Numbered from the stretch's first letter, positions 3,159 through 18,505 are shown. The stretch is DNA of 18,505 bases from Methanobacteriaceae archaeon (GCA_003558085.1 PWMT01000096.1:1-18505); one strand, 5' to 3'. The notes: generated from the sequence alone by a model not told the origin. Numbers and translations are program-made.

Positions 3159-3177
3159 TAATCATGATCAACATTGA

Positions 3178-3263
3178 TCACCGCCAATTGGTGGATAATA
3201 AATACTCTTTTTAGGGACCAGGTCCCTTGGATGTGGCGTAAGCTGAACAAAGAGGTGTTTTTA
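3178..3263 (+). ncRNA. Structured 5' leader of rpl15e, candidate eL15-Euryarchaeota ribosomal leader
   Basis: GC-rich hairpins in AT-rich DNA: ccgcc-aatt-ggtgg (3181-3194), agggac-cag-gtccct (3213-3227), ggc-GTAA-gct GNRA tetraloop (3235-3244), then SD GAGGTG (3252-3257). Confidence 0.55.
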
Positions 3264-3809
3264 ATGTATAAATATGTAAAAGATGCATGGAAAAATCCAA
3301 AAGAATCCTATGTAAGGGAACTAATGTGGGAGAGAGCTCCAAAATGGAGACGAGAAAACATTATTGAGAGAATAGATAAACCTACCCGTATTGACCGAGC
3401 ACGATCTTTAGGTTATAAGGCCAAAAAAGGATATATAGTGGTTAGAACCCGAGTTAGACGTGGTGGAAGAAGAAAAACTCGATTCAAGTCAGGTAGAAGA
3501 GCTAAAAGAATGGGTGTACGTAAAATTACTCCTAAAAAATCCCTGCAAAGAATAGCTGAAGAGAGAGTGGCTCGAAAATTCCCCAACCTGGAGGTATTAA
3601 ATTCCTACTGGGTCTGGAAAGATGGTAAATTCAAATTCTACGAAGTCATCTTGGTGGATCCCCACCACCCTTCTATAAAAAATGATCCTAAAATTAACTG
3701 GATCTGCGATAAACAGCACCATGGAAGAGCATTTAGGGGACTTACAAGTCAGGGTAAAAAGACTCGTGGTTTACGTGGAAAAGGAAAAGGCGCTGAAAAA
3801 GTAAGATAA
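3264..3809 (+). CDS. rpl15e: 50S ribosomal protein L15e (eL15)
   Basis: [10 protein letters not shown]..., [35 protein letters not shown] motifs. Start moved from TTG 3174 to ATG 3264, which follows SD GAGGTG. Confidence 0.98.
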
Positions 3810-3862
3810 TAAGCTTACTTTTTTATTTTATTTATTTTAATTATTAGTTTTTAAGGTTAGTT

Positions 3863-4282
3863 ATGATCCATAATATTAGCTATAGAGTTTTTGTTCATGG
3901 AACAGAAAAGGAAAGTAAAGTATTGGAAGCTCTCAAAAATATTTTTCCCAACGCCAAACCAGAAAGAGAGCTTAGCCAAGGCCACCATAAAAATGAGATT
4001 ATAATACTACATCAAAAACTAGTAAAAAAAGATGAAATTAATCCATTCCTTAGAAAAATTAAATCATTAGAATCAGCATCTAGGGAAGACATTTTAAATA
4101 ATTTGGATAAGAAAATGGATTATAAAGGAAATTTATTCATCCGTTTAAGTAAACAATCTGCCTTTTTAGGTAAATGGAAGATGATGGAACACGGTGACTC
4201 TATTCACATACGTTTAAAATTTGCAGCTTATCCTGCCAAAAAAGAAGTGGCTTTGAAAATAGCCCAGGAATGGTTGGATTAA
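3863..4282 (+). CDS. Predicted RNA-binding protein (DUF54/COG1325-like, exosome-operon associated)
   Basis: FVHGTE...KVLEAL and LFIRLSKQ.A..G......GDSI motifs. Conserved position between rpl15e and rnp3. Confidence 0.85.
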   Translation: MIHNISYRVFVHGTEKESKVLEALKNIFPNAKPERELSQGHHKNEIIILHQKLVKKDEINPFLRKIKSLESASREDILNNLDKKMDYKGNLFIRLSKQSAFLGKWKMMEHGDSIHIRLKFAAYPAKKEVALKIAQEWLD

Positions 4283-4283
4283 A

Positions 4284-5027
4284 TTGAAGTTCTTTGATTT
4301 TCATCTTAGAGGAAAAAATCTGGAAGCTGACCATACTTTAATTAAAGAAGCACTTAGATTAGGATATGCGGGAGTTTCCTTATTTTATCTGGAAAAGGAT
4401 TATAAATTAGCTTTAAAATATTTAGATAGAATAAGAGCAGATATAAATTTGAATAATTATTCTTTAAATCATTCCTCAGGAAATATTACAGATTTTCAAA
4501 TAATAGCTGGCCTTAAATTAAAGCCCAAAAACCCCCTTGATTTGCAAAAAAAGATCAGAAACTTACCTAAAACTGATATATTGATGGTCCAGGGAGGGGA
4601 TTTGAAAATTAATCGGGCAGCCTGTGAAAACATTAAAGTTGATATACTATCTAGACCATATTACAAGCGAAGAGATTCTGGAATTAACCATGTTTTAGCT
4701 AAAGAAGCTTTTAAAAATAATGTGAGTATTGAAATATCGTTGAATGATCTTTTAAGATCTAAAAATAGTTTAAGAGCTAAAATAATCAGTTATTTTCATG
4801 ATATTATCAAATTACATCGTAAATTCAACTTTCCTTTATTAATTTCCAGTGGAGCTGCTTCTTTCTATGATTTACGTACTCCTAGAGATCTTATAGCGTT
4901 GTTCAAATGTTTAAATATGAATGAAGATGAGATAATAACTTCAATATCCCATTTACCTCGCTCTATACTGGATAATAGCCTGCAGAGGAAGAATACCATT
5001 GTATCTGGGGTAAAAGTAATCCCCTGA
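4284..5027 (+). CDS. rnp3: RNase P protein component 3 (Rpp30)
   Basis: TTG start. VQGGDLKINRAACEN..VDILSRP and ISSGA.SFYDLRTPRD motifs. Confidence 0.93.
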   Translation: MKFFDFHLRGKNLEADHTLIKEALRLGYAGVSLFYLEKDYKLALKYLDRIRADINLNNYSLNHSSGNITDFQIIAGLKLKPKNPLDLQKKIRNLPKTDILMVQGGDLKINRAACENIKVDILSRPYYKRRDSGINHVLAKEAFKNNVSIEISLNDLLRSKNSLRAKIISYFHDIIKLHRKFNFPLLISSGAASFYDLRTPRDLIALFKCLNMNEDEIITSISHLPRSILDNSLQRKNTIVSGVKVIP

Positions 5028-5210
5028 AAATAGGAAAATGATATTTTGATCATGGATATTATAACATCTGTTAATCTAGTTTAATATCCCTGAATCCTAA
5101 TAAACTCTATTTTTTCTCTGGCTAATTCTATCTTGGATAAGAAATAGCTAAAAAATTTGAGATATTCTTTACTTTTTTGACCAGGAAAATTTAAATGGAA
5201 GAAAAAAACT

Positions 5211-5600
5211 ATGAAACTTAAAACACTTCCTCCAACTTTAAGGGAGGATAAAAGATATCTGGCATTTGAAGTACTATCCTCTCAAGATTTAAGTAGAGAT
5301 GAATTAATCTTTATGATATGGGATGCTTGTTTAAAGTTTCATGGTGAATGTGAAACCAGTAAATTTCGGTTATGGCTAAATAGATCCTGGAATTTAACTT
5401 CAAAAAATGATTCTAATCAGTTATCTCATTGGAAGGGAATTTTACAGTGCAGCAGAGGATATGAAGAAAAGGTGCGCGGAGCTTTATGTCTTTTAACTTA
5501 TTATAATCAGAAAAGAATAGTATTTCATACCCTGGGTATAGCTGGCACCATTTCCTCATTAATAAAAAAGTTTATTAAACCAGTCCCTAAGATAGATTAA
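5211..5600 (+). CDS. rnp2: RNase P protein component 2 (Pop5/Rpp14)
   Basis: LPPTLREDKRYLAFEV N-terminus and TLGIAGTI C-terminal motif. Confidence 0.93.
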   Translation: MKLKTLPPTLREDKRYLAFEVLSSQDLSRDELIFMIWDACLKFHGECETSKFRLWLNRSWNLTSKNDSNQLSHWKGILQCSRGYEEKVRGALCLLTYYNQKRIVFHTLGIAGTISSLIKKFIKPVPKID

Positions 5601-5739
5601 TAAGTATACATATATTAGAACCATAATATTATTAAAAAATAGATTTTTTTAGAATATAAATCATTTTAATAAAGAAATAAATAAATTTAGATGGTAAATC
5701 ATTTTCATAAGAAAATAAAAAAATTAGAGAGGTATACAT

Positions 5740-6486
5740 ATGCAACCACTTCAGAGTGCAGGATATGATAGGGCTATCACCGTATTTAGTCCAGATGGAA
5801 GACTATTTCAGGTTGAATATGCAAGAGAGGCCGTAAAAAGAGGTACCACTTCTTTAGGTGTAAAGTCAGCTGAAGGAATAGTGCTGGTAGTGGATAAGAG
5901 ACCCACCAGCAAACTGGTAGAACCTAAATCCATAGAAAAAATATTCCAGATAGATGAACATATTGGGACTGCTACCTCTGGTTTAGTGGCAGATGCCCGG
6001 GCAATTATTGAAAAAGCAAGAATTGAAGCTCAGATTAATAGAATAACCTATAATGAACCCATCAGAGTAGAATCTTTAGCTAAAAAAATATGTGACATGA
6101 AACAGATGTATACTCAGCATGGAGGAGTACGTCCTTTTGGATCAGCTTTAATTATTGGCGGAGTTAACGGTAAAGGATGTCATTTATTTGAAACCGATCC
6201 TAGTGGAGCTTTAATTGAATATAAAGCTACAGCTATAGGTGCTGGAAGAGCTGCAGCCATGGAAGAATTTGAAAAGAAATATAAAGAAAACTTGAGTATG
6301 GAAGAATCTATTGAACTGGCATTAGATGCTGTTTATGAAGCAACTGAAGGAAAAACAACTCCTGAGAGTGTGGAAATAGCAGTCATTGATTCTAGAGATA
6401 AGCAATATAAAAAATTAACTGAAGAAGAAATAAAAGATCATGTAGAAGAGCTTCTCTTAAGAAAGGAAAAAGAAGAAGAGGAATAA
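5740..6486 (+). CDS. psmA: Proteasome subunit alpha
   Basis: [24 protein letters not shown] signature. SD GAGGT upstream. Confidence 0.99.
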
Positions 6487-6490
6487 AAAG

Positions 6491-7195
6491 ATGGTAACTC
6501 TTGAAGATGCTGTCATCGCCCGTTTAGAATCACATGGTGAACGATTCGAAATTTTAGTTGATCCTGATTTAGCCTCTGAATTGAAAAGAGATGTCACTCA
6601 AACTGATATTGAATTAGAAGAGGCATTAGCAGTACAGGAAATATTCAAAGACTCTAAAAAGGGAGACAAAGCATCTGAAGAAGCCATGCTAAAAGTATTT
6701 GATAGTATAGATCCCTTGGAAGTGGCGCTGGCCATTATACAGAAGGGACAGATACAACTTACTGCCCAACAACGGCGGAAAATGCAAGAGGAAAAACACA
6801 AGAAAATTGTAAATAAAATAGCTAGAGAAGCTATAAATCCTCAAACTGGGCTACCTCACCCCACAAGGCGTATAGAAAATGCGATGGAAGAGTCAAAAAT
6901 TCATATTGATCCATTCAAACCAGTTGATGAACAACTCAAACTGGTATTAAAGGCCATTCGCACTAAAATTCCCATAAAAATCGAAAAAGTTAAGATGGCT
7001 ATAAAAATCCCTGGTGAATACGCTGGCGGATCCTATGCAGATATTTCTAAATTTGGGAAAATTATTCAAGAAGAATGGCAACAGGATGGTTCATGGATAG
7101 CTGTAGTTGAGATACCTGGAGGCTTACAAGACAGTTTTTTTCAAAAAATGAGCCAAATTACAGGTGGAAATGTCGAAGCAAAGGCTATCAAATAA
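6491..7195 (+). CDS. Ribosome maturation factor SBDS/Sdo1 homolog
   Basis: [41 protein letters not shown] motifs. Confidence 0.97.
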
Positions 7196-7247
7196 AATAT
7201 TCTTCTTTTAGCTATCTAGGTGGCCTTCCCCAAAAAGGAGGCATAAC

Positions 7248-8099
7248 ATGATATTTGTAAATGATAAAGATCTAGTAGTACCTGGTGAAATACTGGCTGA
7301 AGATGATTTTCATCCGGGAAGAGGGACTTTTAAGGAAGAAAATAAGATTTGCTCATCGGTAGTGGGATTGATTGCTCTAAGAAATAAAAAAATTAGTGTA
7401 ATCCCACTGCAAAGTAAATATATTCCTAAAAGAGGTGACGTGGTGATTGGTGAAATCACTGATATCAGATTCTCCATGTGGGGATTGGATATTAATTCTC
7501 CCTATTCCGGTCTTTTACCTGCTTCCGAAGTATTTGGAAAAGAAAAAAGAGAATTGGATAAGGTTTTTAAAATAGGAGATGTTCTCTTTCTAAGAGTAGT
7601 AGACGTGGATGAAGTTAGAAAAGTTAAACTCGGATTAAAAGGACGTGGCTTAGGTAAATTCAAGGGTGGTATATTGATCTACATCACCCCTACCAAAGTA
7701 CCCCGTTTAATAGGTAAAAAGGGCTCCATGATTAACATGATTAAGGATAAAACTAATTGTGAGATCGTAGTGGGTCAAAATGGAGTGGTATGGGTTAATG
7801 GTGACATTGAAATGGAGAGAGTCGCTGAAAAGGTTATCAAGATGATTCAAAAACAGGCCCATACTTCTGGCTTAACAGACCGTGTCCGGGAAATGCTAGC
7901 CCAATTAACTGGTGAAGAACTAGAAGTTAGTAAAGATACCGAAGCAGTAGAGGGAGAGGAAAATGATAATGATAATGCTTCATCAGAGGATGAAAAGGAT
8001 GTTAAACAAGAAAATGATACTAATTCATCCGAAAAAGATAATAAAAACATCCCTCGAGAAATTTTTGAATCTAAATTAAACTTAAATCATAAGAGGTGA
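7248..8099 (+). CDS. rrp4: Exosome RNA-binding subunit Rrp4 (S1+KH) with acidic C-terminal tail
   Basis: [11 protein letters not shown] (S1), [12 protein letters not shown] (KH), [24 protein letters not shown]. Confidence 0.97.
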
Positions 8100-8815
8100 T
8101 TATTATCATCACACTAGGCACTAATGTTGGAACAAAAGCAAGGGAAGATGGCCGTGCTTTTGATGAGTTACGTAATTTAAAAATAGATGCAGGTGTATTA
8201 GAAAGAGCTGATGGATCTGCTTATCTGGAATTTGGTGGAAATAAAATACTGGTAGCTATATACGGTCCTAAAGAATCATATATTAGAAGATTGCAGCGAC
8301 CGGATCGGGCAGTTATACGATGCCGTTATAATATGGCTCCCTTTTCCGTGGATGATCGTAAAAGACCAGGACCGGATCGTAGATCTATTGAAATATCAAA
8401 AATAACTGCCGAGGCATTACATTCTTCAGTGATACTGGAGAAATATCCCCGATCCATGATCGAAGTATTCATTGAGGTTTTAGAAGCTGAAGGCGGTACT
8501 CGTTGTGCTGGAATTACTGCGGCCTCTGTAGCTATGGCTGATGCAGGTATACCTATGCGGGATATGGTAGTGGCCTGTGCTGCCGGTAAAGTAAATGGGG
8601 AGATAGTACTAGATCTTTCAGAAGTGGAAGATAAGGATGGTGAAGCAGATGTCCCTGTGGCTATTTTACCCCGAACTGGTCAGATAACTCTCTTGCAGAG
8701 TGATGGTAACTTAAGTGCTGATGAATTTGAAAAGGCACTTGATCTAGCTATAAAGGGCTGCCAACAGATCAGCGAAGTTCAGAAAGAAGCCCTGAAAAAT
8801 AGGTATGGTGTATAA
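8096..8815 (+). CDS. rrp41: Exosome catalytic subunit Rrp41 (RNase PH fold)
   Basis: [36 protein letters not shown] motifs. Exact start uncertain (GTG 8096 or ATC 8105). Confidence 0.97.
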
Positions 8816-9605
8816 AATGAAAATTGTACCAGAAATAACTCGTAAAAGTATAACCAATCTTATCAACCAACAAGAACGAGTTGATGGTAGAGCCATGGAT
8901 GAATTTAGAGAGATATCCCTGGAAAGTGGAATAATTTCCAAAGCAGAAGGCTCTGCTCGGGTGAAGATAGGTAACACCCAAATCATTGTAGGAGCCAAAC
9001 CCCAATTAGGTGAACCCTTCCCAGATACTCCTAATTTAGGAGTCTTAATAACTAATTCTGAATTGCTTCCTATGGCATCACCTACTTTTGAACCAGGACC
9101 TCCTGATGAACGATCAGTTGAATTATCTAGAGTGGTAGATAGATGTATCCGAGAATCTCAGATGGTGGATCTGGAAGAATTATGTATAATTCCAGGGAAA
9201 AAGGTTTGGATGATATTCCTAGATCTGCATATTCTAGATTATGATGGCAACCTCATGGATGCTGCTGCGCTGGCCACGGTAGCTGCCTTGAAAAATACTC
9301 AAATACCTAATACCCAGGTAGAAGATAATGAAGTGATAATGGATCAGGAAGAGATGAAACCACTTCCTCTTAAGGAAGAAGCATTAATGTGTACTTTTGC
9401 TAAAATAGGAGATGAACTGGTACTTGATCCTTCCCTAGACGAGGAAAAGATATTATCAGCTAGATTATCTATTGGAATAACTTCATCAGGAAAAATATGT
9501 GCCATGCAAAAGGGTGGTGATCATCCCTTAACTAAAGAGGAAATTTTAAAGGCAGTTAAAATTGCTGAAGTAAAAACCCAGGATCTGATGAAACACTTGG
9601 AGTAA
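8805..9605 (+). CDS. rrp42: Exosome subunit Rrp42
   Basis: [48 protein letters not shown]. Start may be ATG 8817. Confidence 0.97.
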
Positions 9606-9974
9606 TCAAATTTTAAATCTTTACCTTTAAATATTCCTTTAATTATATTTCAAGTAATTACATCTAGCAGCGTCCCTTTAGTTCTATTTAAGGCGGATCA
9701 TCTTTTACTCCTCACCTTAATATAATATCAGTTTTAAGAGAGATAATCGAAATTTATGTTTATGATAAAAACTTTTATCTCCAGAATCAAGCTGAACTAT
9801 TATCGAACTTAAATAGATCATGCTCAGAGTTAAACCTTAACAGCAGATAAATGGATATTTAACCTATCTATCTTTCTAATCCTAATATTGATGGAAGGGG
9901 AGCTAACAGGAAATGAATTTTCTTGAAGTTTATAGTCAACTATTAATTAAATTAATTTATTGGAAGTGATATTT

Positions 9975-10244
9975 ATGGCAAGAACCAAAAAAGTCGGTAT
10001 TACAGGACGTTTTGGTCCAAGATACGGTAGAAAAGCTAAAAGAACAGTACAAAAAATCGAAGAAAAAATGAAAAAGAAGCATGTTTGCCCTAAATGTGAT
10101 AGGCCCTACGTTAAAAGAATAGGTAGTGGTATCTGTAAATGTACTAAATGTGATAATGTCTTCACCGGCGGTGCATATGTTCCCGCTACTCCTATGGGTA
10201 AAACTGCTAATAGAAATATTAAGAGGATAATTGGAGGTTTATAA
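9975..10244 (+). CDS. rpl37ae: 50S ribosomal protein L37ae (eL43)
   Basis: [22 protein letters not shown]...CTKC zinc ribbon, FTGGAY. Start set at ATG 9975. Confidence 0.97.
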
Positions 10245-10376
10245 TTGTATAAATGTGCAGAGTGTGGATTTTTATTAGATCCTAGAATCACTTTGGAGAA
10301 CAAATGTCCTCGCTGTAGATATAGAATACTATTTAAACAAGTGCCTGTAGTCAAAAGAACTGTAAAGGCCCGATAA
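10245..10376 (+). CDS. rpoP: DNA-directed RNA polymerase subunit P (Rpo12)
   Basis: Not in the ORF track (43 aa). TTG start right after the rpl37ae stop, SD GGAGG at 10233-10237. MYKCAECG...[24 protein letters not shown] zinc ribbon. Confidence 0.95.
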
Positions 10377-10418
10377 TTCCTTTTTAGTTTACTAAATAAG
10401 GGCCTATAGGATGTTTTA

Positions 10419-10934
10419 ATGCTCATAACTACTTCTAGAAAACCATCACCTAAAACCCGACAATTATGCAAAACATTTACCCGGATTTTTAGCTCAGATT
10501 GTATTAATAGAGGTAAAATGAGCCTGCGAGATGTTTTCATCCAGAGCTCTAATCGAGGATATACTCACACCCTCATAATTCATGAATATAAGGGTAATCC
10601 CCAGCAGGTCAAATTCTATGGAAATAAAGGCGAAGAACTTATTCATTTAGAAATCAATGTAAAATTACCTTCAGCTCGCTTACAATTTAATCCAGAGTCT
10701 TTAACTTTCAAATGTGATGTAAAGGATTTATGCTTTTTAAAAGAATTTCTACCGGTAAAGGCCCATTATCAAGATCCTGAATCTAATTATATGTGGATAA
10801 AAGACACCCAGAAGGATTATCTAGCTATAATGGATTTTATGGATAAAAAGGGGTATAGTAGTGGATTTAGAATTTATGTAAAAAATTGGAAAGAAGGTGA
10901 CCCAGTTAGCGCAAATAAAAAAGATGGAAGTTAA
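10419..10934 (+). CDS. Brix-domain (Imp4-like) ribosome biogenesis protein
   Basis: MLITTSRKPSPKTR, NRGKMSL, E.KGNP motifs. Canonical position after rpoP. Confidence 0.92.
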   Translation: MLITTSRKPSPKTRQLCKTFTRIFSSDCINRGKMSLRDVFIQSSNRGYTHTLIIHEYKGNPQQVKFYGNKGEELIHLEINVKLPSARLQFNPESLTFKCDVKDLCFLKEFLPVKAHYQDPESNYMWIKDTQKDYLAIMDFMDKKGYSSGFRIYVKNWKEGDPVSANKKDGS

Positions 10935-11181
10935 TACTATAAATTCTATCCAGGCGGATATGGAAATGAAATTGGATTCGGCAGATGAAGCCGCTATTAT
11001 CTATGCAGCACTTTTTCCTGAATTTCAAAGCTCGCCTTCCAGCCGATCCACCATGCACCTGTACCTCCAAGATAATATTTTATATTTAAAACTTCAGGCC
11101 AAAGACGTTACTTCCTTTAGAGCTTCTCTTAATTCATCCATTCGATGGATCATTCTTTCCCTAGACATGTTAAATCTTTAA
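10924..11181 (+). CDS. pcc1: KEOPS complex subunit Pcc1
   Basis: A..IY.AL.PE....P..RS and A.D..SFRA.LNS..RW motifs. Start probably ATG 10924, overlapping the Brix stop (track gives GTG 10897). Confidence 0.88.
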   Translation: MEVNTINSIQADMEMKLDSADEAAIIYAALFPEFQSSPSSRSTMHLYLQDNILYLKLQAKDVTSFRASLNSSIRWIILSLDMLNL

Positions 11182-11315
11182 ATAAGTTCTACTATTAAAA
11201 TACTTAAGCAGTCTCTTAAGATGGGATCTATAAAATCTTTATCTTTAAGGCTGAACTTTAAATTAATTAAATCATTAGCAGATGAATAAATTTTATAAAT
11301 ATGAGGTGATAAAAA

Positions 11316-11681
11316 ATGGAAATTCCCCAGAATATTCAACACCAGTTAGCCCAGTTTCAGCAACTGCAACAACAGGCCCAGGCCATCTCTATGCAGAAGC
11401 AAAATGTAGAAATGCAAATACAAGAAACACAAAAAGCACTGGAAGAATTAAAGAAAACAGAAGATGACTCTGAAATTTTTAAAACTGCCGGCAATCTACT
11501 TATTAAGGTTAAAAAAGATGAAATCAATAGTGAATTGGAAGATAAATTAGAAACCTTACAACTTAGAGAAAAAACCGTGACTCGGCAGGAAGAAAGGGTC
11601 ATGAAAAAGCTTCAGGAAATGCAGTCCACCTTACAGGAGGCAATGCAGGGGGCTGGTATGGGCCCGGGTACAGGTAATTAA
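11316..11681 (+). CDS. pfdB: Prefoldin beta subunit
   Basis: [20 protein letters not shown] coiled coil and [11 protein letters not shown] hairpin. SD GAGGTGA. Confidence 0.97.
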
Positions 11682-11963
11682 TTGAAAAAACTTAAAACTT
11701 TGAGTAAGGCGGATTTAGAATTAATTTCCGATTTTATATCCTCCACTGCTCAAGATTTTATTTTAAATAAAATATCTAGAAAAGAAATAGACAACCTGGA
11801 TATTAGATCTGAAGTTTCCTATGATGATGAACTAAAGGTAGATTTATCCATTAACATCCATGTAGATGAGTTATCTGTTTATGATGAGGAGATTGTGGAT
11901 CAGGCCTTAGATTATACTTTTAAAGTATTGGAACATTTTCTAGATGAAAATTATCGTTTATAA
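11682..11963 (+). CDS. Conserved archaeal hypothetical protein (DUF3194-like)
   Basis: TTG start abutting the pfdB stop. Acidic 93-aa protein (ISRKEIDNLDI) at the position this family usually occupies after pfdB. Confidence 0.75.
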   Translation: MKKLKTLSKADLELISDFISSTAQDFILNKISRKEIDNLDIRSEVSYDDELKVDLSINIHVDELSVYDEEIVDQALDYTFKVLEHFLDENYRL

Positions 11964-12019
11964 TATTTTATTTTCACGCCTCCTCTTTATTTAAGATATT
12001 GATTTTAGAGCCCGGAGTA

Positions 12020-12030
12020 TTTTTTTTTTT
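12020..12030 (+). terminator. Oligo-T terminator candidate closing the superoperon
   Basis: Run of 11 T about 55 nt after the last gene. Confidence 0.5.
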
Positions 12031-12152
12031 GATGGTAACTATAAGGCATTTAATTTATTTTCTAAATTAGAAATAAAGTTAATTTTTAATTCAATGTTAT
12101 TTATTACTTTTTTTTAAAATTGGGGGTTATAATTATTAATCTAAATCAAATA

Positions 12153-12166
12153 GAAAGATTTAAATA
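12153..12166 (+). promoter_or_regulatory. BRE + TATA box upstream of the structured intergenic element
   Basis: gaaaga-TTTAAATA (TATA 12159-12166), predicting a start near 12185-12189. Confidence 0.5.
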
Positions 12167-12184
12167 ATTTTTCACCAAAATAAT

Positions 12185-12354
12185 GGTTGATAACTAATGC
12201 GTGTAAAGTATTATTTTTGTACTAAAAACTTAGTTATCAAGCTCGAACCATTGAACCCTCTTGTTTTTTTAGTAGGGATCATTTAATTGATCCCTGCTAG
12301 AATAATATCTTAACTGAGCTACTCACGCGACTAAAGCCTGGGGCTTTATCAACC
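12185..12354 (+). ncRNA. Candidate structured RNA (~170 nt) containing a 29-codon ORF
   Basis: 11-bp IR 12187-12197/12230-12240; 12-bp stem with one G.U 12270-12281/12288-12299; 7-bp IR 12332-12338/12342-12348; 9-bp end-to-end complement 12185-12193/12346-12354. Confidence 0.45.
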
Positions 12355-12561
12355 CCTGATCGCAATAACTATAACTCTAGTTTTATTCATGATAGTAATA
12401 CTAAAATTATGGTTTTATAAACTTAGAACAAATCTATGTTTAAAGATCTTTTTTCTGCCTAAAATATTCAGTTAAAAAGCTTATTTTTACTAAAAAATAG
12501 TTTTAATATTTTTTTTATTTTTCTCAAGTGGTATTAACTATAAACCAGATTTTAGGTTTTC

Positions 12562-12590
12562 AGTAATAACAATTACTATAGATTATTACT
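12562..12590. promoter_or_regulatory. NikR-like operator AGTAATAA-N13-TTATTACT (GTAATA-N15-TATTAC)
   Basis: Perfect 8-bp inverted repeat. Half-site size and spacing resemble NikR operators. Lies upstream of metal-uptake genes. Confidence 0.55.
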
Positions 12591-12614
12591 TTCAAGAGTA
12601 TATTACTTAAAATT

Positions 12615-12645
12615 GTAATAACACAAACTATATTTATAGTATTAC
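12615..12645 (+). promoter_or_regulatory. Promoter of the large FmdE-domain gene: GTAATA-N12-TTTATA-GTATTAC
   Basis: TATA-like TTTATA at 12633-12638, bracketed by GTAATA (12615) and GTATTAC (12639). The same GTAATA-N12-TTTATA spacing recurs at 15913. Confidence 0.55.
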
Positions 12646-12702
12646 TCCAATTTAGGTCTGCACTAAAGGTGCCCATATTTAATATTACTAAAAAATGAGG
12701 AG

Positions 12703-15700
12703 GTGAAAAAGATAAAAAAACAAGCAACATTTCTAATAATGATAATGGTCTTCGCCATGGTTATTTGTGGAGCAGTTGCAGCAGAAGATGGATCAAACAC
12801 CGGTGGTGAAATAGAGTTGCAAGGGGAACCATCACCCCTGGAAGTGGATGAAGAGAGTTCACAAACAGCAAAAAATGAGGATAATGGTTCCAAATCAAAA
12901 GAACTAGTAGATTCTATCATCGGGGTTAAAGTAAATTACCAGTACGCTGATGATGAAATCAATCCAGGCATTACCCTTAAAAATCTAAGCGGTGAGAGCA
13001 TTGAATATGTTAAAACTTATGATGCTGCCTTTAAAGGATATAAACTGGAATTCTTTTACCCTGGAGTAGAGGGAGGAAGCAAGTTTAAAGTCTCAGTTAC
13101 TGCCCCGGGATACATTACTCAAGAACAAGAAGCTACAGTTAATAAGCATCCCACCGATACTACTGATCCGAATCTCTACGCTAACCTTACTTTCAATATG
13201 AAAGCCACAGAAAACTATCGCTTAGGACGAGAAGTTACCAAAAAAGCAGATGAACTATTAAACTTTGCCACAGCTGATGAAGTTCTATGCATAACTACCG
13301 CTGGTGTACCTAAACTTAATGGAACTACCAGCGAGGATGTCATTGAGGGTATCCTTAACCAATCAAATGGTATAATAACGGATGGTAAAGGTAATCTGTT
13401 ATTATTGAGGAAACCACCGACAGAACCAGTGAACTTTGCCTTTGCAGTAAAAAGGGGAAGCCAGTTAATCATGGCTTATTTCTACGATGGATCCCTGAAC
13501 CCGGCTTATGTGGGCACGGCATCTGCAAATATGAGTGAGAATCAGTGGAGAGATGTAACTCATAAATTAGGTAAAGATGCCTACGATATAACCAGCCTAG
13601 TCAATGCCTGGGCAGTAGGAGCTCCTACTGACCTTTTAAAGGCCGCAGCTTTTCATGGACATATGTGTGATGGAACTATAAGTGGATATGCTATTACTGA
13701 AATGCTCTTAAAGTATTATCCACCGGAACAGGAGACTTTAACCCATAGGGGTGCTCCTGCAGATCATACATTTTATAGGTCTATAACTATCCCTGGTGAT
13801 TCTAAAGACGATGCATTTTTATACATTCTAAACCTGACACCAGGTAAAGGAGGATCACTTTCAGGATATGATACCAGTGAAACTGGCGCCACCCGACAAA
13901 TGGCAGCATTTATCCGTTGGGATAATAAACTTAAAACTGGTACTATAATCATACTCAATTTTGATCGAGCAGCCTACCAGAAAGACTTTAAAAATGAAAC
14001 TGGACAATCGCCTTCATCAACAACACCCCATGATCATAGTCACGATGACCATACACAGGAACACGTTCACACTGATATTTATCCCCTAAGGTTAACTACC
14101 TGGTTACTGGGCAAATTAAATGAAAACCCCGAACAATACATCGAAATTATTCTAGCCAAAGAAGGATTAACTGAGGAATCCTACTACTATCTCTTGGGTT
14201 CACCCAGTGATATTAAAAATCCAGATGGTAGTGTGCGCATACCTGCACAAGAAGCAGCTGGATTAGACTTGGAATACATCGAAAGTCTAGATTTACCGGA
14301 TGCCATACCGGCGGATCCATCTCAACTAGAAAGTGGTAATTTAACCCCAGAACAAATGAAACAAATTGGAATAGATGCTGCTAATCTGGCTAAACAAATA
14401 TTCCTTGATGAGAAAGGAATAAATCTGGAAAAAGATGATCGAGATTTACTAGTGCAAACTTCTGCTGGTTACGTCCGCTTAAATGGTCAATTGACAGATA
14501 TGACTATGGATGGAATCTTCGAAGTTCTAGGATCCAGATTAAGCCGATACACTTTACTACCTATGCATAACACACCCTGGAATCCACTCTATTTTGCCTT
14601 CACCCTAAGAGGTGCTGATGGAGTAATTATGGACTCCATTTACATGAGCTACGACCCAGATGAACATAAATTTTGGGTGGGAACCTCTGCTGAAGGAAAA
14701 CAAGTGAATAATATCGGTCCAGAAGCATTGAATAATCCTGAAATATTAGAAGATCTTTCTAAGAACGTTTTCAAAGAAGGGAACTTTTCTAATATCCAAT
14801 CCATCGCCAATGCATGGAGAAATGATCCGCCTTTTGATCAGTTACTGACTTTCCTTTTCCACGATCATGCCTGTCCTGGAGTACAGCCTGGATTTTTCAT
14901 AACTGAAAAAGTTCTAACAGACTTCCCTTTAAGTGGAGATGAGCACTATTACTATTTAGCAGCTAGTATCTACTGTAAAGACGATGCTCTAATATACTTG
15001 ATGGGCATATCTCCGGGCACTGGAACTTATATGAGTAACAGGCTTCTTGATGAGGATTTATTTGATCAAAATCCAGATTTGCCTGGTGGAAGAGATGAAG
15101 GTTTATTAGTTGTTTGGGATCCAGCTACCAAAACTGGCCAAGCAGTTGTAATTACCTTTAAATGGCCAGAATTTGATCGTACTGGTCTTAATACTAGAGA
15201 AGCAATTCGTGAAGCTCAAATTGCTGGTTTTGTAGCCCTCTATAAAGATGAGGAATTTGCCCGGTTAACTGCACCGCTTCAAGTATCAACTTCAACACCC
15301 AAGTACATCACTGAAGCAGAATACAATACCATCCGTCGGGGTGGATTTGCCCAATCCAATGCAATACAATATCTAAACAGTCTTCCTTATCGAAACCGTG
15401 CTGATTTGATTCAGGTTCCTGGTGGTGACCATAGTCATAATGGAGGCCACAGCCATGATAGTACGGGAGGCCATACCCATGATGGTACGGGAGGCCATAC
15501 CCATGGTCCTTGTGGACATATTCATGGTCCAGCTACAATGGGACATTCCCATGCTCATGCTGGTTACGGCCCTGGACATACCCATGCTTCTTCTGAATTA
15601 GGAGCTGATGGTGCTGAAGGTGAATCGCCTGGTGAGGGTACTGCTTACGAGGTTACTGCAGGTTCAGGTTCAGGTGGAGCCTCATCTAATCTACCAAATT

Positions 15701-15786
15701 ATGCTATAATCTTTGGTTTATTAGGTATCAGTGCTTTGGCTGTATTTGGATTCCTTAAAGGTGGTTTAGGACCATTGCGAAAATAA
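12703..15786 (+). CDS. Secreted, C-terminally membrane-anchored His-rich protein with two FmdE-like metal-binding modules
   Basis: Signal peptide (KKQ, hydrophobic core, AVAA|E). FHGHMCDG (13651) and FHDHACPG (14857) in an internal duplication. His-rich tracts 14029-14070 and 15430-15585. C-terminal TM helix plus basic tail. Start may be ATA 12712. Confidence 0.85.
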   Translation: MKKIKKQATFLIMIMVFAMVICGAVAAEDGSNTGGEIELQGEPSPLEVDEESSQTAKNEDNGSKSKELVDSIIGVKVNYQYADDEINPGITLKNLSGESIEYVKTYDAAFKGYKLEFFYPGVEGGSKFKVSVTAPGYITQEQEATVNKHPTDTTDPNLYANLTFNMKATENYRLGREVTKKADELLNFATADEVLCITTAGVPKLNGTTSEDVIEGILNQSNGIITDGKGNLLLLRKPPTEPVNFAFAVKRGSQLIMAYFYDGSLNPAYVGTASANMSENQWRDVTHKLGKDAYDITSLVNAWAVGAPTDLLKAAAFHGHMCDGTISGYAITEMLLKYYPPEQETLTHRGAPADHTFYRSITIPGDSKDDAFLYILNLTPGKGGSLSGYDTSETGATRQMAAFIRWDNKLKTGTIIILNFDRAAYQKDFKNETGQSPSSTTPHDHSHDDHTQEHVHTDIYPLRLTTWLLGKLNENPEQYIEIILAKEGLTEESYYYLLGSPSDIKNPDGSVRIPAQEAAGLDLEYIESLDLPDAIPADPSQLESGNLTPEQMKQIGIDAANLAKQIFLDEKGINLEKDDRDLLVQTSAGYVRLNGQLTDMTMDGIFEVLGSRLSRYTLLPMHNTPWNPLYFAFTLRGADGVIMDSIYMSYDPDEHKFWVGTSAEGKQVNNIGPEALNNPEILEDLSKNVFKEGNFSNIQSIANAWRNDPPFDQLLTFLFHDHACPGVQPGFFITEKVLTDFPLSGDEHYYYLAASIYCKDDALIYLMGISPGTGTYMSNRLLDEDLFDQNPDLPGGRDEGLLVVWDPATKTGQAVVITFKWPEFDRTGLNTREAIREAQIAGFVALYKDEEFARLTAPLQVSTSTPKYITEAEYNTIRRGGFAQSNAIQYLNSLPYRNRADLIQVPGGDHSHNGGHSHDSTGGHTHDGTGGHTHGPCGHIHGPATMGHSHAHAGYGPGHTHASSELGADGAEGESPGEGTAYEVTAGSGSGGASSNLPNYAIIFGLLGISALAVFGFLKGGLGPLRK
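15454..15505 (+). repeat. 24-bp tandem duplication encoding HD(S/G)TGGHT
   Basis: catgatagtacgggaggccatacc / catgatggtacgggaggccatacc / catg, one mismatch. Confidence 0.9.
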
Positions 15787-15788
15787 AC

Positions 15789-15814
15789 TTTTTTTTCTTT
15801 TTTTCTTTTTTTTT
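15789..15814 (+). terminator. Oligo-T terminator after the FmdE-domain gene
   Basis: 24 of 26 nt are T, immediately after the stop codon. Confidence 0.75.
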
Positions 15815-15880
15815 AAACCTAAATTATTTTAAACTAGTGAAGTGGTATTTTATGCGCGTATAAAGCTTAAATCACTTTAA

Positions 15881-15937
15881 GTAATACAAATTGGGCTTTC
15901 TAATTAAAAAAAGTAATACCAACCGTTAATTTTATAT
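15881..15937 (+). promoter_or_regulatory. Promoter of cbiM-1 with two GTAATAC boxes 32 bp apart
   Basis: GTAATAC at 15881 and 15913. TTTATA at 15931 lies 12 nt after the second GTAATA. Confidence 0.5.
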
Positions 15938-16021
15938 GAGACTAGTTTGGAATTATTTAGTTAAACAGAACATGATTTATAATTAAATTGTTATTAATTA
16001 CCCTATTGTGAGGTTTTTAGT

Positions 16022-16645
16022 TTGCATATCCCTGATGGAATTATACCTTTATCTCAAGCTATGGTTTACTGGATTATAAGTATCATTGTGGTTTTTATCT
16101 ACATGTTTAAAGTATCTAAAGATGAAGATAAGGAGCAAAGAGTTTTCACCACCGCTCTTCTAGTGGTGGCATCCTTAATCGGATCTTCCTTATCCATTCC
16201 TTCACCTTTAGGAATACCTATACATTTTTTCATCATACCCTTGGTGGTGATTATCTTAGGGCCTTGGAGTGGCTCATTGGTGGCCTTTTTAACTCTCCTA
16301 ATGCAGTATTTTCTGCTGGGAATGGGAGGTATCACCAGTTTAGGGGCTAATACCGTGACTATTGGGGTGGTGCTTAGCTTTTCTACTTACATCTTTTATA
16401 GGATCACTCGGGATTTGGATTTCAAATTCAGCATCTTTTCTGGATCTTTTATGGGAATAATCATGGCTACCTTGACACATATTTTAATATTGCTTATTGC
16501 AGGTGTAGCTACATTAGAAGTACTGGTGGCCACTTTAATACCATTTTATTTATTTATTACCGTTATAGAGAGCCTGGCCAATGTAGTGGTCATATCCTTT
16601 TTAGCTAAAATTAAACCCCAATTAATAAATATGAAAAAAATTTGA
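16022..16645 (+). CDS. cbiM: ECF-type Co/Ni transporter S-component (CbiM/NikM family), copy 1
   Basis: TTG start after SD GTGAGGT. N-terminal MHIPDG, His68 (PIHF), GMGGITSLGAN. 207 aa, polytopic. Co versus Ni specificity not determinable. Confidence 0.9.
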   Translation: MHIPDGIIPLSQAMVYWIISIIVVFIYMFKVSKDEDKEQRVFTTALLVVASLIGSSLSIPSPLGIPIHFFIIPLVVIILGPWSGSLVAFLTLLMQYFLLGMGGITSLGANTVTIGVVLSFSTYIFYRITRDLDFKFSIFSGSFMGIIMATLTHILILLIAGVATLEVLVATLIPFYLFITVIESLANVVVISFLAKIKPQLINMKKI

Positions 16646-16659
16646 GGAGGAATAAAAAG

Positions 16660-17169
16660 ATGAAAATACAATTAATTTTAACGGGTCTTATGATATTGGG
16701 CATGGTAGCAGCGGTATCTGCCCATGGAATACATATCGCCACTGAGACTGATGCAGATGTAGTTATAATTGCTGATCAGGATAGTGCTGATCTAGCCCGC
16801 AGAGTGGTGAGTGAATTAGGAGTAAATGCTGGGGTTTTTGAATTCACGTCACCAGGTCAAGTAAACCATGAACTAGGCCACTTCATTTTTGATCACGATT
16901 ATACGGTACTAGCGGTGGCTTATCAGGATACTGTAGAAGAATTTATAGTTAATAATCCACAATCTTCAGATCAAATCAGAGTATCAGCAGCAGAAGAAGA
17001 AGAGATCAGAAATAATCTAATGGAGCTCACGGAAAATGGTACTGGCGAGCCAACTACTCCTCCTGTTGAGGAAAGTGGATTTTTAATTCCTTTCATTTTA
17101 GGACTTTTAGTGGGATTTGTTGCTGGTTTGGGATTAGGTGCTTTCTGGATGAAAAGGAAGAGTGCTTAA
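16660..17169 (+). CDS. Small secreted, membrane-anchored putative metal-binding protein, copy 1
   Basis: ATG 16660 after SD GAGGAGG. Signal peptide ending AVSA|HGIH, internal HELGH, P/T linker, C-terminal TM helix plus KRK. Confidence 0.8.
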   Translation: MKIQLILTGLMILGMVAAVSAHGIHIATETDADVVIIADQDSADLARRVVSELGVNAGVFEFTSPGQVNHELGHFIFDHDYTVLAVAYQDTVEEFIVNNPQSSDQIRVSAAEEEEIRNNLMELTENGTGEPTTPPVEESGFLIPFILGLLVGFVAGLGLGAFWMKRKSA

Positions 17170-17203
17170 TCTCCTCTTTTTTCTATTTTTATAATCAATT
17201 TTT
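17170..17203 (+). terminator. Pyrimidine/T-rich terminator candidate
   Basis: tctcctcttttttctattttt directly after the stop codon. Confidence 0.5.
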
Positions 17204-17459
17204 TAATTAAAACTTTTCTATATTATTTATTTTTAATAAATAAATTATTTAAAAACTATTTGTATAGTTTATAACTTACTTAAGCTTAATTAAAACTATA
17301 TCTTGACTTCTTTTTAAGGAATAATCAAATTTTATAGTAAATTTTATATATTAGTTCACGATTTATTTAAGTATACTTTAATTAATTTCAATTATACCTG
17401 AATTATGGGTGTGATTGGAATTATTAAATAAGCATTAAAATGAAAGGGAGGTCTTTAAT

Positions 17460-18083
17460 CTGCATTTACCAGATGGAATTATACCTTTAGGACAAGCTTT
17501 AATTTACTGGATTATAACCATTGTAACCTTGCTTATCTACCTATATCGGCTTTCTAAAATTGAAAACCGTAATAAATTAATCATCAGCACCTCACTTTTA
17601 GCGGCAGTAACCATGGTGGCGGGTTCCCTACATATACCCTCACCTTTAGGTATCCCCATGCACCTTTTCATCATACCCCTGGTAGCTATTTTACTGGGAC
17701 CTCTAAGTGGGGCTACTGTAGCGGTATTGGTGCTTATAGTACAAGCATTTTTACTGGGAATGGGTGGAATAACTGCCTTAGGTGCCAATGCCTTAACTTT
17801 AGGTTTACCTGTAACCCTGGCCACATATTATTCCTATAAATTGCTTTTAGATATTGATTTCCGGTTGAGTGTTTTCTCCGCCACTTTTATTGGAGCTATC
17901 ATGGTTACGGTAACTCAGAGTGTGATACTTTTAATTGCAGGGGTTTGGACTTTAGAAGTGATATTAGCTACTTTAGTACCGTTTTACTTATTCATAGGAG
18001 TGATTGAAGGAGTGGCTAATGTAGCTGTTTTATCTTTCTTAGCTAGAGTTCAACCTGAATTTTTATCTATAGAGAAGGTTTAA
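17460..18083 (+). CDS. cbiM: ECF-type Co/Ni transporter S-component (CbiM/NikM family), copy 2, CTG start
   Basis: Extending the track ORF (17529) upstream gives CTG-CAT-TTA-CCA-GAT-GGA (MHLPDG), 7 nt after SD GGGAGGT. Length is then 624 nt, identical to copy 1, with His68 conserved. Confidence 0.88.
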   Translation: MHLPDGIIPLGQALIYWIITIVTLLIYLYRLSKIENRNKLIISTSLLAAVTMVAGSLHIPSPLGIPMHLFIIPLVAILLGPLSGATVAVLVLIVQAFLLGMGGITALGANALTLGLPVTLATYYSYKLLLDIDFRLSVFSATFIGAIMVTVTQSVILLIAGVWTLEVILATLVPFYLFIGVIEGVANVAVLSFLARVQPEFLSIEKV

Positions 18084-18099
18084 GGAGGAATGAAAAAAT

Positions 18100-18505
18100 A
18101 TGAAAAAAATAATATGTTTAGTCATAATGTTAATGGGAATAATAGCACCTATATCTGCCTGTGGACCACATTTTGCCCCAGACGGTGGGGTGGATGTAGT
18201 GATAATAGCAGACCAAGCAAGCAGCCCCCTGGCTACCAATTTGATAAATTCATTAGGGGTAAATGCTCAGGTGATCGAATTTCCTTCCAAGGATGCTGTA
18301 AAGCATGAGATGGGTCACTATATTTATGACTACGATGTTAAAGTATTGGCAATCGCTTATCAGGATACTGTGGAAGAATTTATAGCAGATAATCCAGAAT
18401 CCTCAGATCTAATCAGAGTCTCTGCAGCAGAAGAAGAAGAAATTGAAGATAATTTAAACCAACTAGAAGCTGAAACTACTTCCCCCGGGCAAACCACTGA
18501 TCCCA
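18100..18505 (+). CDS. Small secreted putative metal-binding protein, copy 2 (partial, runs off the window)
   Basis: Not in the ORF track. MKKIICLVIMLMGIIAPISA|CGPHFAPDGGVDVVIIADQ...HEMGH...AYQDTVEEFI..NP.SSD.IRVSAAEEEEI, clearly paralogous to 16660-17169. Confidence 0.88.
   Translation, partial: MKKIICLVIMLMGIIAPISACGPHFAPDGGVDVVIIADQASSPLATNLINSLGVNAQVIEFPSKDAVKHEMGHYIYDYDVKVLAIAYQDTVEEFIADNPESSDLIRVSAAEEEEIEDNLNQLEAETTSPGQTTDP

Follow-up and report, generated by a model that had tools for sequence, protein, structure and literature searches.

How does a methanogen carry nickel and cobalt from the cell surface to its importers? Methanogens have an unusually high demand for nickel (F430, hydrogenases, carbon monoxide dehydrogenase/acetyl-CoA synthase) and cobalt (corrinoids), often in metal-scarce sulfidic habitats, and methane formation in digesters and the rumen is limited by trace-metal supply. 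We know of no account of the route by which metal passes through the pseudomurein wall to the substrate-binding (S) component of an energy-coupling factor (ECF) transporter. The question is raised by an 18,505-nucleotide stretch of DNA of a Methanobacteriaceae archaeon (GCA_003558085.1, PWMT01000096.1:1-18505), here called the window, which is a complete 18.5-kb contig (C132) of an assembly of 1.86 Mb that is 95.9% complete. Open reading frame (orf) listing together with Pfam and NCBIfam scans identified five co-oriented genes on the + strand of its last ~6 kb (12703-18505), and all five are as a preliminary description, made from the sequence alone, had read them: an exported double-FmdE protein, two CbiM/NikM-type S-components and two small exported proteins with His or Cys at their tips. 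At a rough probability of 55%, these genes would belong to a nickel-regulated accessory Ni/Co ECF uptake system, possibly under the control of NikR, that has new extracytoplasmic components and is confined to the Methanobacteriales.

A CbiM clade and its small exported partner

The first S-component gene, cbiM1 (16022-16645, + strand), has a TTG start and encodes a protein with the N-terminus MHIPDG. The second, cbiM2 (17460-18083, + strand), was listed from 17529, yet the frame that reads MHLPDG opens at a CTG codon at 17460, 7 nt after GGGAGG. The two proteins are 54-55% identical, and both match PF01891 (cut-off 23.1 bits), CbiM1 at 137.1 bits and CbiM2 at 119.9 bits from the listed start or 140.9 bits, over model positions 1-204, from the CTG start. 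Their alignment partners among solved structures are NikM2 of Thermoanaerobacter (TtNikM2; 4M58/4M5B) and CbiM of Rhodobacter (5X3X). In TtNikM2, Met1, His2 and His67 are reported to be nickel ligands, and Gln94, Gly101, Gly102 and Asn109 to hold the N-terminal loop (PMC3945884). Alignment to 4M58/4M5B makes M1, H2, H68, Q95, G102, G103 and N110 of the present proteins the counterparts of TtNikM2 M1, H2, H67, Q94, G101, G102 and N109; of these, H2, H68, Q95, G102, G103 and N110 are invariant across 20 clade members, and M1 is nearly so, the CbiM2 row having been entered from His2. Because the metal ligands of CbiM include Met1, the start codon must still be decoded as methionine; the start codons of 22 clade genes are TTG (14), ATG (6), GTG (1) and CTG (1), always preceded by a strong GGAGG. 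Weak start codons are typical of the cluster at large, the FmdE gene probably using ATA, cbiM1 TTG and cbiM2 CTG, all behind strong GGAGG. For the C-terminal hydrogen-bond network (His190 and Glu198 of TtNikM2), the phmmer alignment spans residues 1-155 only; a glutamate, E183, is invariant in the clade. Columns were read against canonical paralogues, and for that purpose only, in alignment A2, whose CbiM2 row has the CTG entered as M and internal Leu read as Met; alignment A3 was used elsewhere.

The clade is only ~30% identical to the canonical CbiM of the same genomes and scores 65.7 bits with TIGR00123, against a cut-off of 184. PF01891 is matched in 200 of 201 genomes of the order, typically at ~200 bits, whereas the best score in the present genome is 141 bits; the only CbiM copies in the assembly are therefore the two of the new clade. 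From the alignments, these proteins can be placed firmly in a distinct Methanobacteriales CbiM clade with a predicted Ni/Co site that is intact.

After a gap of 14-16 nt, each S-component gene is followed by a gene for a small exported protein. The first, small1 (16660-17169, + strand), encodes 169 aa, identical (100%) to the gene-called protein P0001, and its ribosome-binding site begins directly after the cbiM1 stop codon; its paralogue small2 (18100-18505, + strand), 55% identical across the aligned part, is truncated by the contig end, and since the window is the whole contig, nothing 3' of small2 is visible in it. Small1 is predicted to consist of a signal peptide, a Rossmann-like ectodomain and a C-terminal anchor. 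In its AlphaFold model (predicted local distance difference test score, pLDDT, 83.5) a four-stranded Rossmann-like domain lies between an N-terminal helix and an anchor helix, and sequence and model together give hydrophobic helices at residues 2-21 and 142-168 with an outward-facing middle. The N-terminal segment resembles a signal peptide that is cleaved off, so that the predicted mature N-terminus is His in small1 (VSA/HG, then HGIH) and Cys in small2 (ISA/CG). Alignment A1 shows a variable hydrophobic N-terminus that closes in small-x-Ala, which is conserved, and then His-Gly; in one helix (the HxxxH motif, H70/H74 of small1) His70 is invariant and His74 nearly so; and a C-terminal helix with conserved glycines, which forms the Gly-rich anchor of small1, is followed by KRK. 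In a second, independent set, [A/G/S]-H-G is present in 56/56 sequences and H-x-[LM]-x-H in 53/56, and the residue three positions past the mature His (position +4) is Asp, His or Glu in 56/56; small2 of the window is the sole sequence in which Cys replaces the first His.

The family scans gave no Pfam or NCBIfam match for the small proteins. Of the 34 homologues found in a search of 5.8 billion proteins, all are unnamed or hypothetical except for one with a stray label, and Pfam domains are absent from every one; among 1.84 billion cluster representatives, a profile search returned just 42 matches at E <= 1e-3, many of them fragments, and the family is therefore very small. Foldseek with the small1 model found nothing in the PDB at E <= 1e-3, de novo Rossmann 2x2 designs lying near E 2e-3, and a wide structural search (VIA) gave Z scores up to 10.5 to many unrelated Rossmann domains and binding-protein lobes, to none of which a family could be assigned. 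An identity as TPM domain (PF04536) is suggested only by the label of Atlas automatic clustering (score 0.91), which the listed Pfam matches do not bear out. In a scan of 21 members at E up to 10, PF04536 was outside the 25 most-matched of 43 Pfam families, as were PF02553 (CbiN) and PF13190 (PDGLE), and the PF04536 fold was outside the top 50 VIA matches.

Among 201 genomes sampled from the order, 79 yielded the small protein, and CbiM is directly upstream of its gene in 30 of the 30 best loci. Peptide patterns of the CbiM clade, scanned independently against named genomes, yielded 57 loci, 30 of which have full 7-kb flanks, spanning Methanobacterium, Methanobrevibacter, Methanosphaera, Methanothermobacter, Ca. 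Methanoflexus and a few oddly labelled contigs of metagenome-assembled genomes; cultured carriers are Methanobacterium oryzae DSM 11106, M. ferruginis and Methanothermobacter. The small gene is directly downstream of CbiM in 56 of these 57 loci, and the lone miss ends 157 nt past CbiM. The small protein is, we conclude with confidence, an obligate, new, exported partner of CbiM. Its layout is that of CbiN/NikN, with the small gene directly after the M gene, hydrophobic segments at both the N- and the C-terminus and an outward middle. The preliminary description had taken it for a small anchored carrier; export and anchorage stand, and a replacement for CbiN/NikN is at least as good a description. 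Prediction of a complex of CbiM1 with small1 residues 22-169 scored 0.00 in two runs that had no controls, and weighs neither way.

The double-FmdE and stalk proteins

The double-FmdE gene (12703-15786, + strand) encodes 1027 aa as counted from a GTG codon. This listed GTG overlaps the ribosome-binding site GGAGGTGA, 5 nt beyond which stands an ATA codon at 12712; because orthologues have ATG at this position behind the same GGAGGTGA (ATT in one locus, L045), the true start is probably ATA 12712 and not GTG. PF02663 matches the whole protein at 73.4 bits in two stretches (cut-off 22.9), which score 42.2 and 38.9 bits in the genome search, each over the cut-off. No PDB sequence was matched by phmmer at E <= 1, and Foldseek of the whole model gave weak rows only, to FmdE structures and transthyretin-like domains. 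The N-terminus is hydrophobic and signal-peptide-like, closing in AVAA/ED, and the C-terminus is a hydrophobic anchor, so that the protein is predicted to be exported and C-terminally anchored. The model (pLDDT 74, predicted template modelling score 0.75) has a beta-sandwich (residues 71-166), two modules of ~330-350 residues (residues about 170-500 and about 549-900) and an anchor helix, with disordered linkers at 439-455 and 906-1008; the C-terminal part runs from His-rich linkers through a YEV motif to the membrane anchor.

The preliminary description had drawn attention to the metal-ligand motif of FmdE domains, HxHxC plus a Cys, and its residues are indeed conserved: H318, H320, C322, S367, H720, H722, C724 and C758, together with H622, are invariant in 20 orthologues. 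The pattern FHGHxC plus distal Cys is a full His-His-Cys-Cys site in module 2 (H720, H722, C724, C758), whereas in module 1 (H318, H320, C322) Ser367 replaces the fourth ligand. In crystals of single-domain FmdE proteins the FHGHxC-plus-Cys site is reported to hold Zn or a Zn/Ni mixture, and according to the structure authors most PF02663 genes adjoin metal-transporter genes (PMC2954224). The double-FmdE gene is not with formylmethanofuran dehydrogenase genes; its neighbours are CbiM-type and housekeeping genes, and a separate, ordinary single-domain FmdE gene is present on another contig (C68:22772-23179).

The His-rich character noted in the preliminary description is present in the window, where 32 His are found in all, with tracts at residues 427-473 and 897-971, but it is not a conserved trait. 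It is limited to the source genus (the window, L040, L041 and L043, and also L065 and L066 when counted among 36 long FmdE orthologues with two HxHxC motifs), while the FmdE stalk in other genera is rich in Ser, Thr, Asn and Gly. Three further His-rich "FmdE" matches (L069, L071, L074) are other large surface proteins without HxHxC and were excluded from this count. A (K/R)(A/S)YEV motif, ~15-25 residues before the anchor helix and basic tail (window ~15645-15786), is present in all double-FmdE orthologues; the same YEV motif occurs in unrelated surface proteins of 1500-1700 aa (L071, L074) and may serve Methanobacteriales surface proteins for sorting or anchoring.

A neighbourhood survey across the Methanobacteriales, such as the preliminary description had called for, finds CbiM, small and double-FmdE genes linked over several genera, with order and orientation varying; an absence of conserved linkage, which that description had named first among its grounds for refutation, does not hold. 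The double-FmdE gene is within ~5 kb in 17 of 20 20-kb loci, in co-directional, divergent or downstream position (the others being one second-copy locus and two loci of family f2), and within 7 kb, again upstream, downstream or divergent, in 40 of the 57 loci and in 25 of the 30 with full flanks.

A fourth partner, a stalk protein, is encoded in 47 of the 57 loci, in 27 of the 30 with full flanks, and in 16 of the 20 20-kb loci. It has 135-190 aa, with a signal peptide, a long low-complexity stalk, a membrane anchor and a predicted mature N-terminus of HPGHG, and its gene is placed between the FmdE gene and cbiM with short spacers in apparent operons. The stalk gene is missing from the source genus, the same genus in which the FmdE stalk is His-rich. 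In termite-gut Methanobrevibacter and Ca. Methanoflexus (L105, L106, L110, L112, L113) the mature N-terminus of the stalk protein is predicted as HD(T/S)(S/G)VPHSHG or similar; the first His and a nearby His pair are retained in these lineages.

Other neighbours recur. A DUF2162, MotA-ExbB and DUF2149 triad adjoins the cluster in 17 of the 57 loci (for example L045, 10503-12195), DUF2149 reportedly being mentioned in papers on Hmu haem uptake of Porphyromonas, and canonical CbiM with PDGLE is another recurrent neighbour. A gene resembling nicotianamine synthase (NAS; PF03059 96 bits, weak CntL match) and a GNAT acetyltransferase gene stand beside the cluster in same-genus and some other loci (NAS/GNAT was observed in L040, at 8073-9666, and in L043, L065, L066, L072, L075 and L079; NAS is counted in 5 of the 57 loci). 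A tblastn search of the source genome's assembly gave no match to NAS, GNAT, the stalk gene, PDGLE or canonical CbiM; NAS and GNAT genes of this genome may lie in the gap past the contig end.

Promoter boxes and dispersed candidate energizing components

Oligo-T tracts follow both the FmdE gene (15787-15815, + strand; a likely archaeal terminator, judged from its sequence) and small1, and the cluster is therefore divided into three transcription units. Boxes of sequence GTAATA were said in the preliminary description to be shared by two promoters. The hexamer as such is not enriched in the window (20 copies against 15.3 +/- 3.8 expected; 27 of 200 shuffles reach 20), although 6 of the 20 copies fall in 12563-12688. 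The extended 8-mer AGTAATAC, in contrast, occurs four times against 0.65 expected, a count reached by 0 of 200 shuffles, and each of the four precedes either the FmdE gene or cbiM1; it is thus the extended (A)GTAATAC box, found at ECF operons too, for which the claim holds.

Upstream of the double-FmdE gene are a distal AGTAATAC box (12394-12401, + strand), a perfect inverted repeat GTAATAA-N13-TTATTAC (12563-12589) whose 7-N13-7 geometry suggests the operators of bacterial NikR, and a box pair GTAATAA ... GTATTAC(T) (12615-12646) located 57-88 nt before the FmdE start region. Before cbiM1 is a AGTAATAC box pair (15880-15919, + strand) with a spacing of 32 bp, and 6 nt beyond its proximal box is the TATA-like element TTAATTTTATAT (~15926-15937); sister species have GTATTAC-N24-GTAATAC at the matching place before the TATA element. 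The motif GTAWTAC, which comprises the box and its own reverse complement, has 187 copies in the 1.86-Mb genome, and just four pairs are <=45 bp apart: in the cbiM1 promoter (32 bp), in the spacer between cbiQ and cdhC (32 bp), upstream of an operon on contig C84 (20 bp), and in coding DNA on contig C119. Both operons of the genome's only two CbiQ-family genes thus carry a GTAWTAC pair. Of 19 intergenic AGTAATAC sites genome-wide, eight are in four places, namely upstream of FmdE, upstream of cbiM1, in the cbiQ/cdhC spacer and upstream of the ChlID-ECF-CobN operon. Across 20 loci of relatives, which as kin are not independent, boxes number 3.76 per kb before core genes, canonical CbiM included (47 in 12.5 kb), against 0.48 per kb in other intergenic DNA (25 in 52.2 kb). 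Two NikR homologues (NikR_C matches) are encoded in the genome.

Transcripts are hinted at by a metatranscriptome run (X1) that yields contigs identical to the window at 12675-13180, 15109-15378, 17397-17607, 17791-18087 and 18142-18310, the third of which covers the CTG start of cbiM2. Since DNA may be present in such libraries, the run points only weakly to transcription of the FmdE and cbiM2-small2 units; no contig lies over cbiM1-small1, an absence of cover that is uninformative.

The window contains no CbiN (PF02553), PDGLE (PF13190), Q or O gene, and the layout of a CbiMNQO or NikMNQO operon was not found in it; nor was CbiN found in a search of the genome, as far as the assembly goes. 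The transmembrane (T) and ATPase (A) components that could energize the S-components are dispersed and, like the HPGHG stalk protein, were missed by the preliminary description, which had the five genes right. One of the two CbiQ-family genes, on contig C84, is part of an operon that encodes ChlI/D, an S-component (Trep_Strep), the T-component, a fused AA protein and CobN; a perfect palindrome of ~60 nt just past the ChlID-ECF-CobN box pair, at the contig end (C84:8240-8308, L122), might be a repeat element or have arisen in assembly. The other CbiQ-family gene (C68:41379-42182) exceeds the cut-off of TIGR02454 and stands by itself, separated by 633 bp from cdhC (acetyl-CoA synthase), which is divergent. 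In three same-genus genomes (L123-L125) canonical CbiM and PDGLE come before the orthologue of this cbiQ, which is 77-80% identical; where these two genes stand in the relatives, the source genome has an intact 633-bp spacer (C68:42183-42815, L062) with the box pair. Because the S/N pair is missing from an uninterrupted contig, this cbiQ is an orphan T gene. A nikM-nikN-nikQ unit is reported beside the acetyl-CoA synthase genes in Methanothermobacter (PMC3087415).

A complete cbiO-type ATPase gene over the TIGR01166 cut-off is located at C120:13900-14742. A second, under that cut-off, is truncated at the start of contig C66 and is 80% identical to the CbiO-type gene of the same cluster in a same-genus relative. 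It is followed on C66 by feoB, a DtxR/MntR-like gene and the DUF2162/ExbB/DUF2149 triad (C66:4280-5992, L060). Because a same-genus relative (L043/L066) has the same ATPase-feoB-regulator string after its FmdE-CbiM-small cluster, with GNAT and NAS between, C66 probably continues C132. As far as the assembly shows, the new system may carry all ECF-type Ni/Co import of the source genome, because the genome has lost the canonical nikMN pair and carries the new pair in duplicate.

Elsewhere in the window, an archaeal exosome, RNase P, proteasome and prefoldin gene string occupies 3174-11963, and from the DUF3194 gene to the FmdE gene there extends an unusually long, 739-bp, AT-rich spacer without genes (11964-12702), in which the stretch at ~12200-12370 has a faint likeness to tRNA by eye. 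No riboswitch or RNA gene was found in the window with ARAGORN, which gave no matches, or with Rfam, which gave none at gathering thresholds; at E <= 1 over 11950-12720, the sole Rfam row, and the one row of either program at the tRNA-like stretch, is a chance-level match to FasX (22.8 bits against a cut-off of 100). A scan for sigma-70 promoters and hairpin terminators gave 17 promoter-like sites where 23.9 were expected, a bacterial model being uninformative for an archaeon.

Alternative explanations and known systems

Because the linkage is conserved, the ligands are invariant and the box is shared, the cluster may be taken for a jointly regulated surface-plus-transporter system related to Ni/Co. 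The genes, their linkage, the ligand residues and the cis element are observed; from them we infer the identity of the metal, its binding, its hand-over and the regulator, as follows. The S-component core, which keeps the planar Met1/His2/His67 site, would be paired with the small partner instead of CbiN/NikN. The small partner would present its mature N-terminal His, its Rossmann-like ectodomain and its HxxxH motif at the outer face, and would load or gate the S-component, as the CbiN loop does in classical systems. The anchored double-FmdE protein, spanning the wall with one predicted His2Cys2 and one His2Cys site, could collect metal at the surface, as could the stalk protein with its HPGHG N-terminus in most genera; in the source genus the stalk protein appears to have been lost and the stalk of FmdE itself to have turned His-rich. 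The source of energy would be T and A components whose genes lie outside the cluster, namely the orphan nikQ-type cbiQ and the cbiO-type ATPases, one of them on the probably adjacent contig. The (A)GTAATAC boxes would tie together transcription of the FmdE gene, cbiM1-small1 and cbiQ, and are most likely bound by one NikR homologue. The metal of the boxed cbiM1 unit is probably nickel; cobalt is possible, especially for the unboxed cbiM2 unit.

Several observations weigh against this nickel-regulated uptake system. No GTAWTAC box is found upstream of the cbiM2-small2 unit, nor at the counterpart of cbiM2 in the sister genome, and the 32-bp spacing of the boxes is unlike that of classical NikR operators. 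T and A genes are not in the window, and a CbiO-type gene is within 7 kb in only 9 of the 57 loci. The CbiM clade falls far under all NCBIfam CbiM equivalog cut-offs (NF004902 and TIGR00123 among them; at best 109.7 bits against 219), and the canonical His seven residues before the conserved Glu, a possible counterpart of TtNikM2 His190, is an invariant Tyr (Y176) in the clade. The small protein has no detectable similarity to CbiN/NikN (hhalign against PDGLE gave 18% probability, over the anchor helix only), so its N-like role is deduced solely from position and topology. The crystals of FmdE proteins are reported to have held Zn over Ni at 2.6:1 (PMC2954224). Finally, the FmdE gene is not nearby in 5 of the 30 full-flank loci, nor in the Methanothermobacter-like L052 and L053, so the FmdE protein is not obligatory.

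A bolder version of the proposal is tentative, and we would sooner doubt it than not: the surface proteins and the S-component may form a relay that captures Ni/Co and to which no described system corresponds. Signal-peptidase cleavage would create anchored proteins that act as fishing lines and bear the metal site at a free N-terminal His (HPGHG at the tip of a long stalk, HG-x-D/H at that of a Rossmann-like domain), and the double-FmdE protein would pass metal inward to the Met-His of the S-component. If so, the N components would gain a new class in the small protein, and the FmdE fold would gain its first assigned function, that of a metal-transfer domain.

It is unlikely, although it is the best of the rival explanations, that the locus encodes an ordinary third Ni/Co ECF importer in which the small protein is a stand-in for CbiN/NikN and the FmdE and stalk proteins do not feed the transporter, being instead co-regulated wall proteins that buffer, store or detoxify metal or have some other role in the wall. 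This would suit the CbiM-small pairs without a nearby FmdE gene (L042/L083 in addition to the loci just mentioned), the separate transcription unit of the FmdE gene, with an oligo-T tract at 15787-15815 and boxes of its own, and the YEV-plus-anchor tail that is common to unrelated large surface proteins. It fits poorly with a linkage that outlasts repeated rearrangement (upstream, downstream, divergent), with a promoter box common to the units, with a stalk gene between the FmdE gene and cbiM at short spacers in apparent operons, and with the coincidence of stalk-protein loss and a His-rich FmdE stalk.

That the substrate is something other than free Ni/Co, either another metal (Zn, Fe or Cu) or a chelate such as a nicotianamine-type metallophore complex, is improbable. 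The mainly Zn-bound crystals of the FmdE core point that way, as do the NAS-like and GNAT genes beside the cluster in 5 of the 57 loci and the FeoB and DtxR/MntR-like regulator genes that follow on C66; however, NAS occurs in a minority of loci only, the planar Met-His plus His67 site, the Ni/Co determinant in solved NikM/CbiM structures, is invariant here, and the box pair is common to the nikQ/acetyl-CoA synthase spacer and canonical CbiM operons. A chance juxtaposition of surface-protein and transporter genes with boxes that are AT-rich noise, for which the unenriched hexamer and the very AT-rich intergenic DNA might speak, is effectively refuted by the shuffles of the 8-mer, by intergenic box pairs that occur genome-wide only at ECF-related promoters, by the 8-fold box density before core genes in relatives, and by linkage counts of 30/30, 17/20, 56/57 and 40/57.

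The nickel-regulated uptake system remains the preferred explanation, and whichever of its parts hold, the cluster gives candidates for a new CbiM/NikM partner, for two surface-protein families with invariant His/Cys sites and for a shared promoter box, and it offers a testable function for the FmdE fold. To our knowledge, the function of that fold has been open since fmd operons were described. A 2010 structure paper ties the fold only loosely to metal transport (PMC2954224). In the literature searched, FmdE and CbiM are treated separately and not as a combination; nor is the combination described in the literature on NikK/NikL/NikM, NikR, DUF2149 and PF02663, an earlier listing of the clade or the box being possible. 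This agrees with the preliminary description, whose author knew of no functional account of the combination. For archaea, a 2009 survey reports only NikMN1QO and NikMN2QO (PMC2667541).

Among known systems, NikMNQO/CbiMNQO (TtNikM2, 4M58; RcCbiMQO, 5X3X) is like the present one in the Pfam family of the S-component, in the Met-His and His67-type ligands and loop-holding residues, in the small membrane-anchored extra partner encoded adjacent to it, and in the presence of CbiQ/CbiO-type genes in the genome. It is unlike it in that the present partner is neither CbiN nor PDGLE/NikN, but a protein of 155-175 aa with a folded ectodomain and conserved His, and in that the present Q and O genes are outside the operon. 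NikKMLQO is likewise reported as an ECF nickel transporter in which extracytoplasmic accessory proteins, NikK and NikL, replace NikN (PMC545781, PMC2667541). TPM-domain proteins share with the small protein a signal peptide, a Rossmann-like domain and a C-terminal anchor, a likeness that is a lead only. Both modules of the double-FmdE protein match the core of the cytoplasmic FmdE family (2GLZ, 2GVI, 3D00), and module 2 keeps the Zn/Ni site of 2GLZ and 2GVI; however, the present protein is predicted to be exported and anchored, has two modules per chain, each with an added N-terminal subdomain of ~130 aa, also has a beta-sandwich and a stalk, and is encoded outside the fmd operon. The reported NikR operators are GTATGAT-N13/14-ATCATAC in enterobacteria and GTGTTAC-N13/14-GTAACAC in delta-proteobacteria (PMC545781). 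The half-sites GTAATAC/GTATTAC are one base off GTGTTAC, and the repeat at 12563-12589 has the same 7-N13-7 form, whereas the commonest layout here is two boxes 32 bp apart (N25), direct in the present genome and inverted in the sister species.

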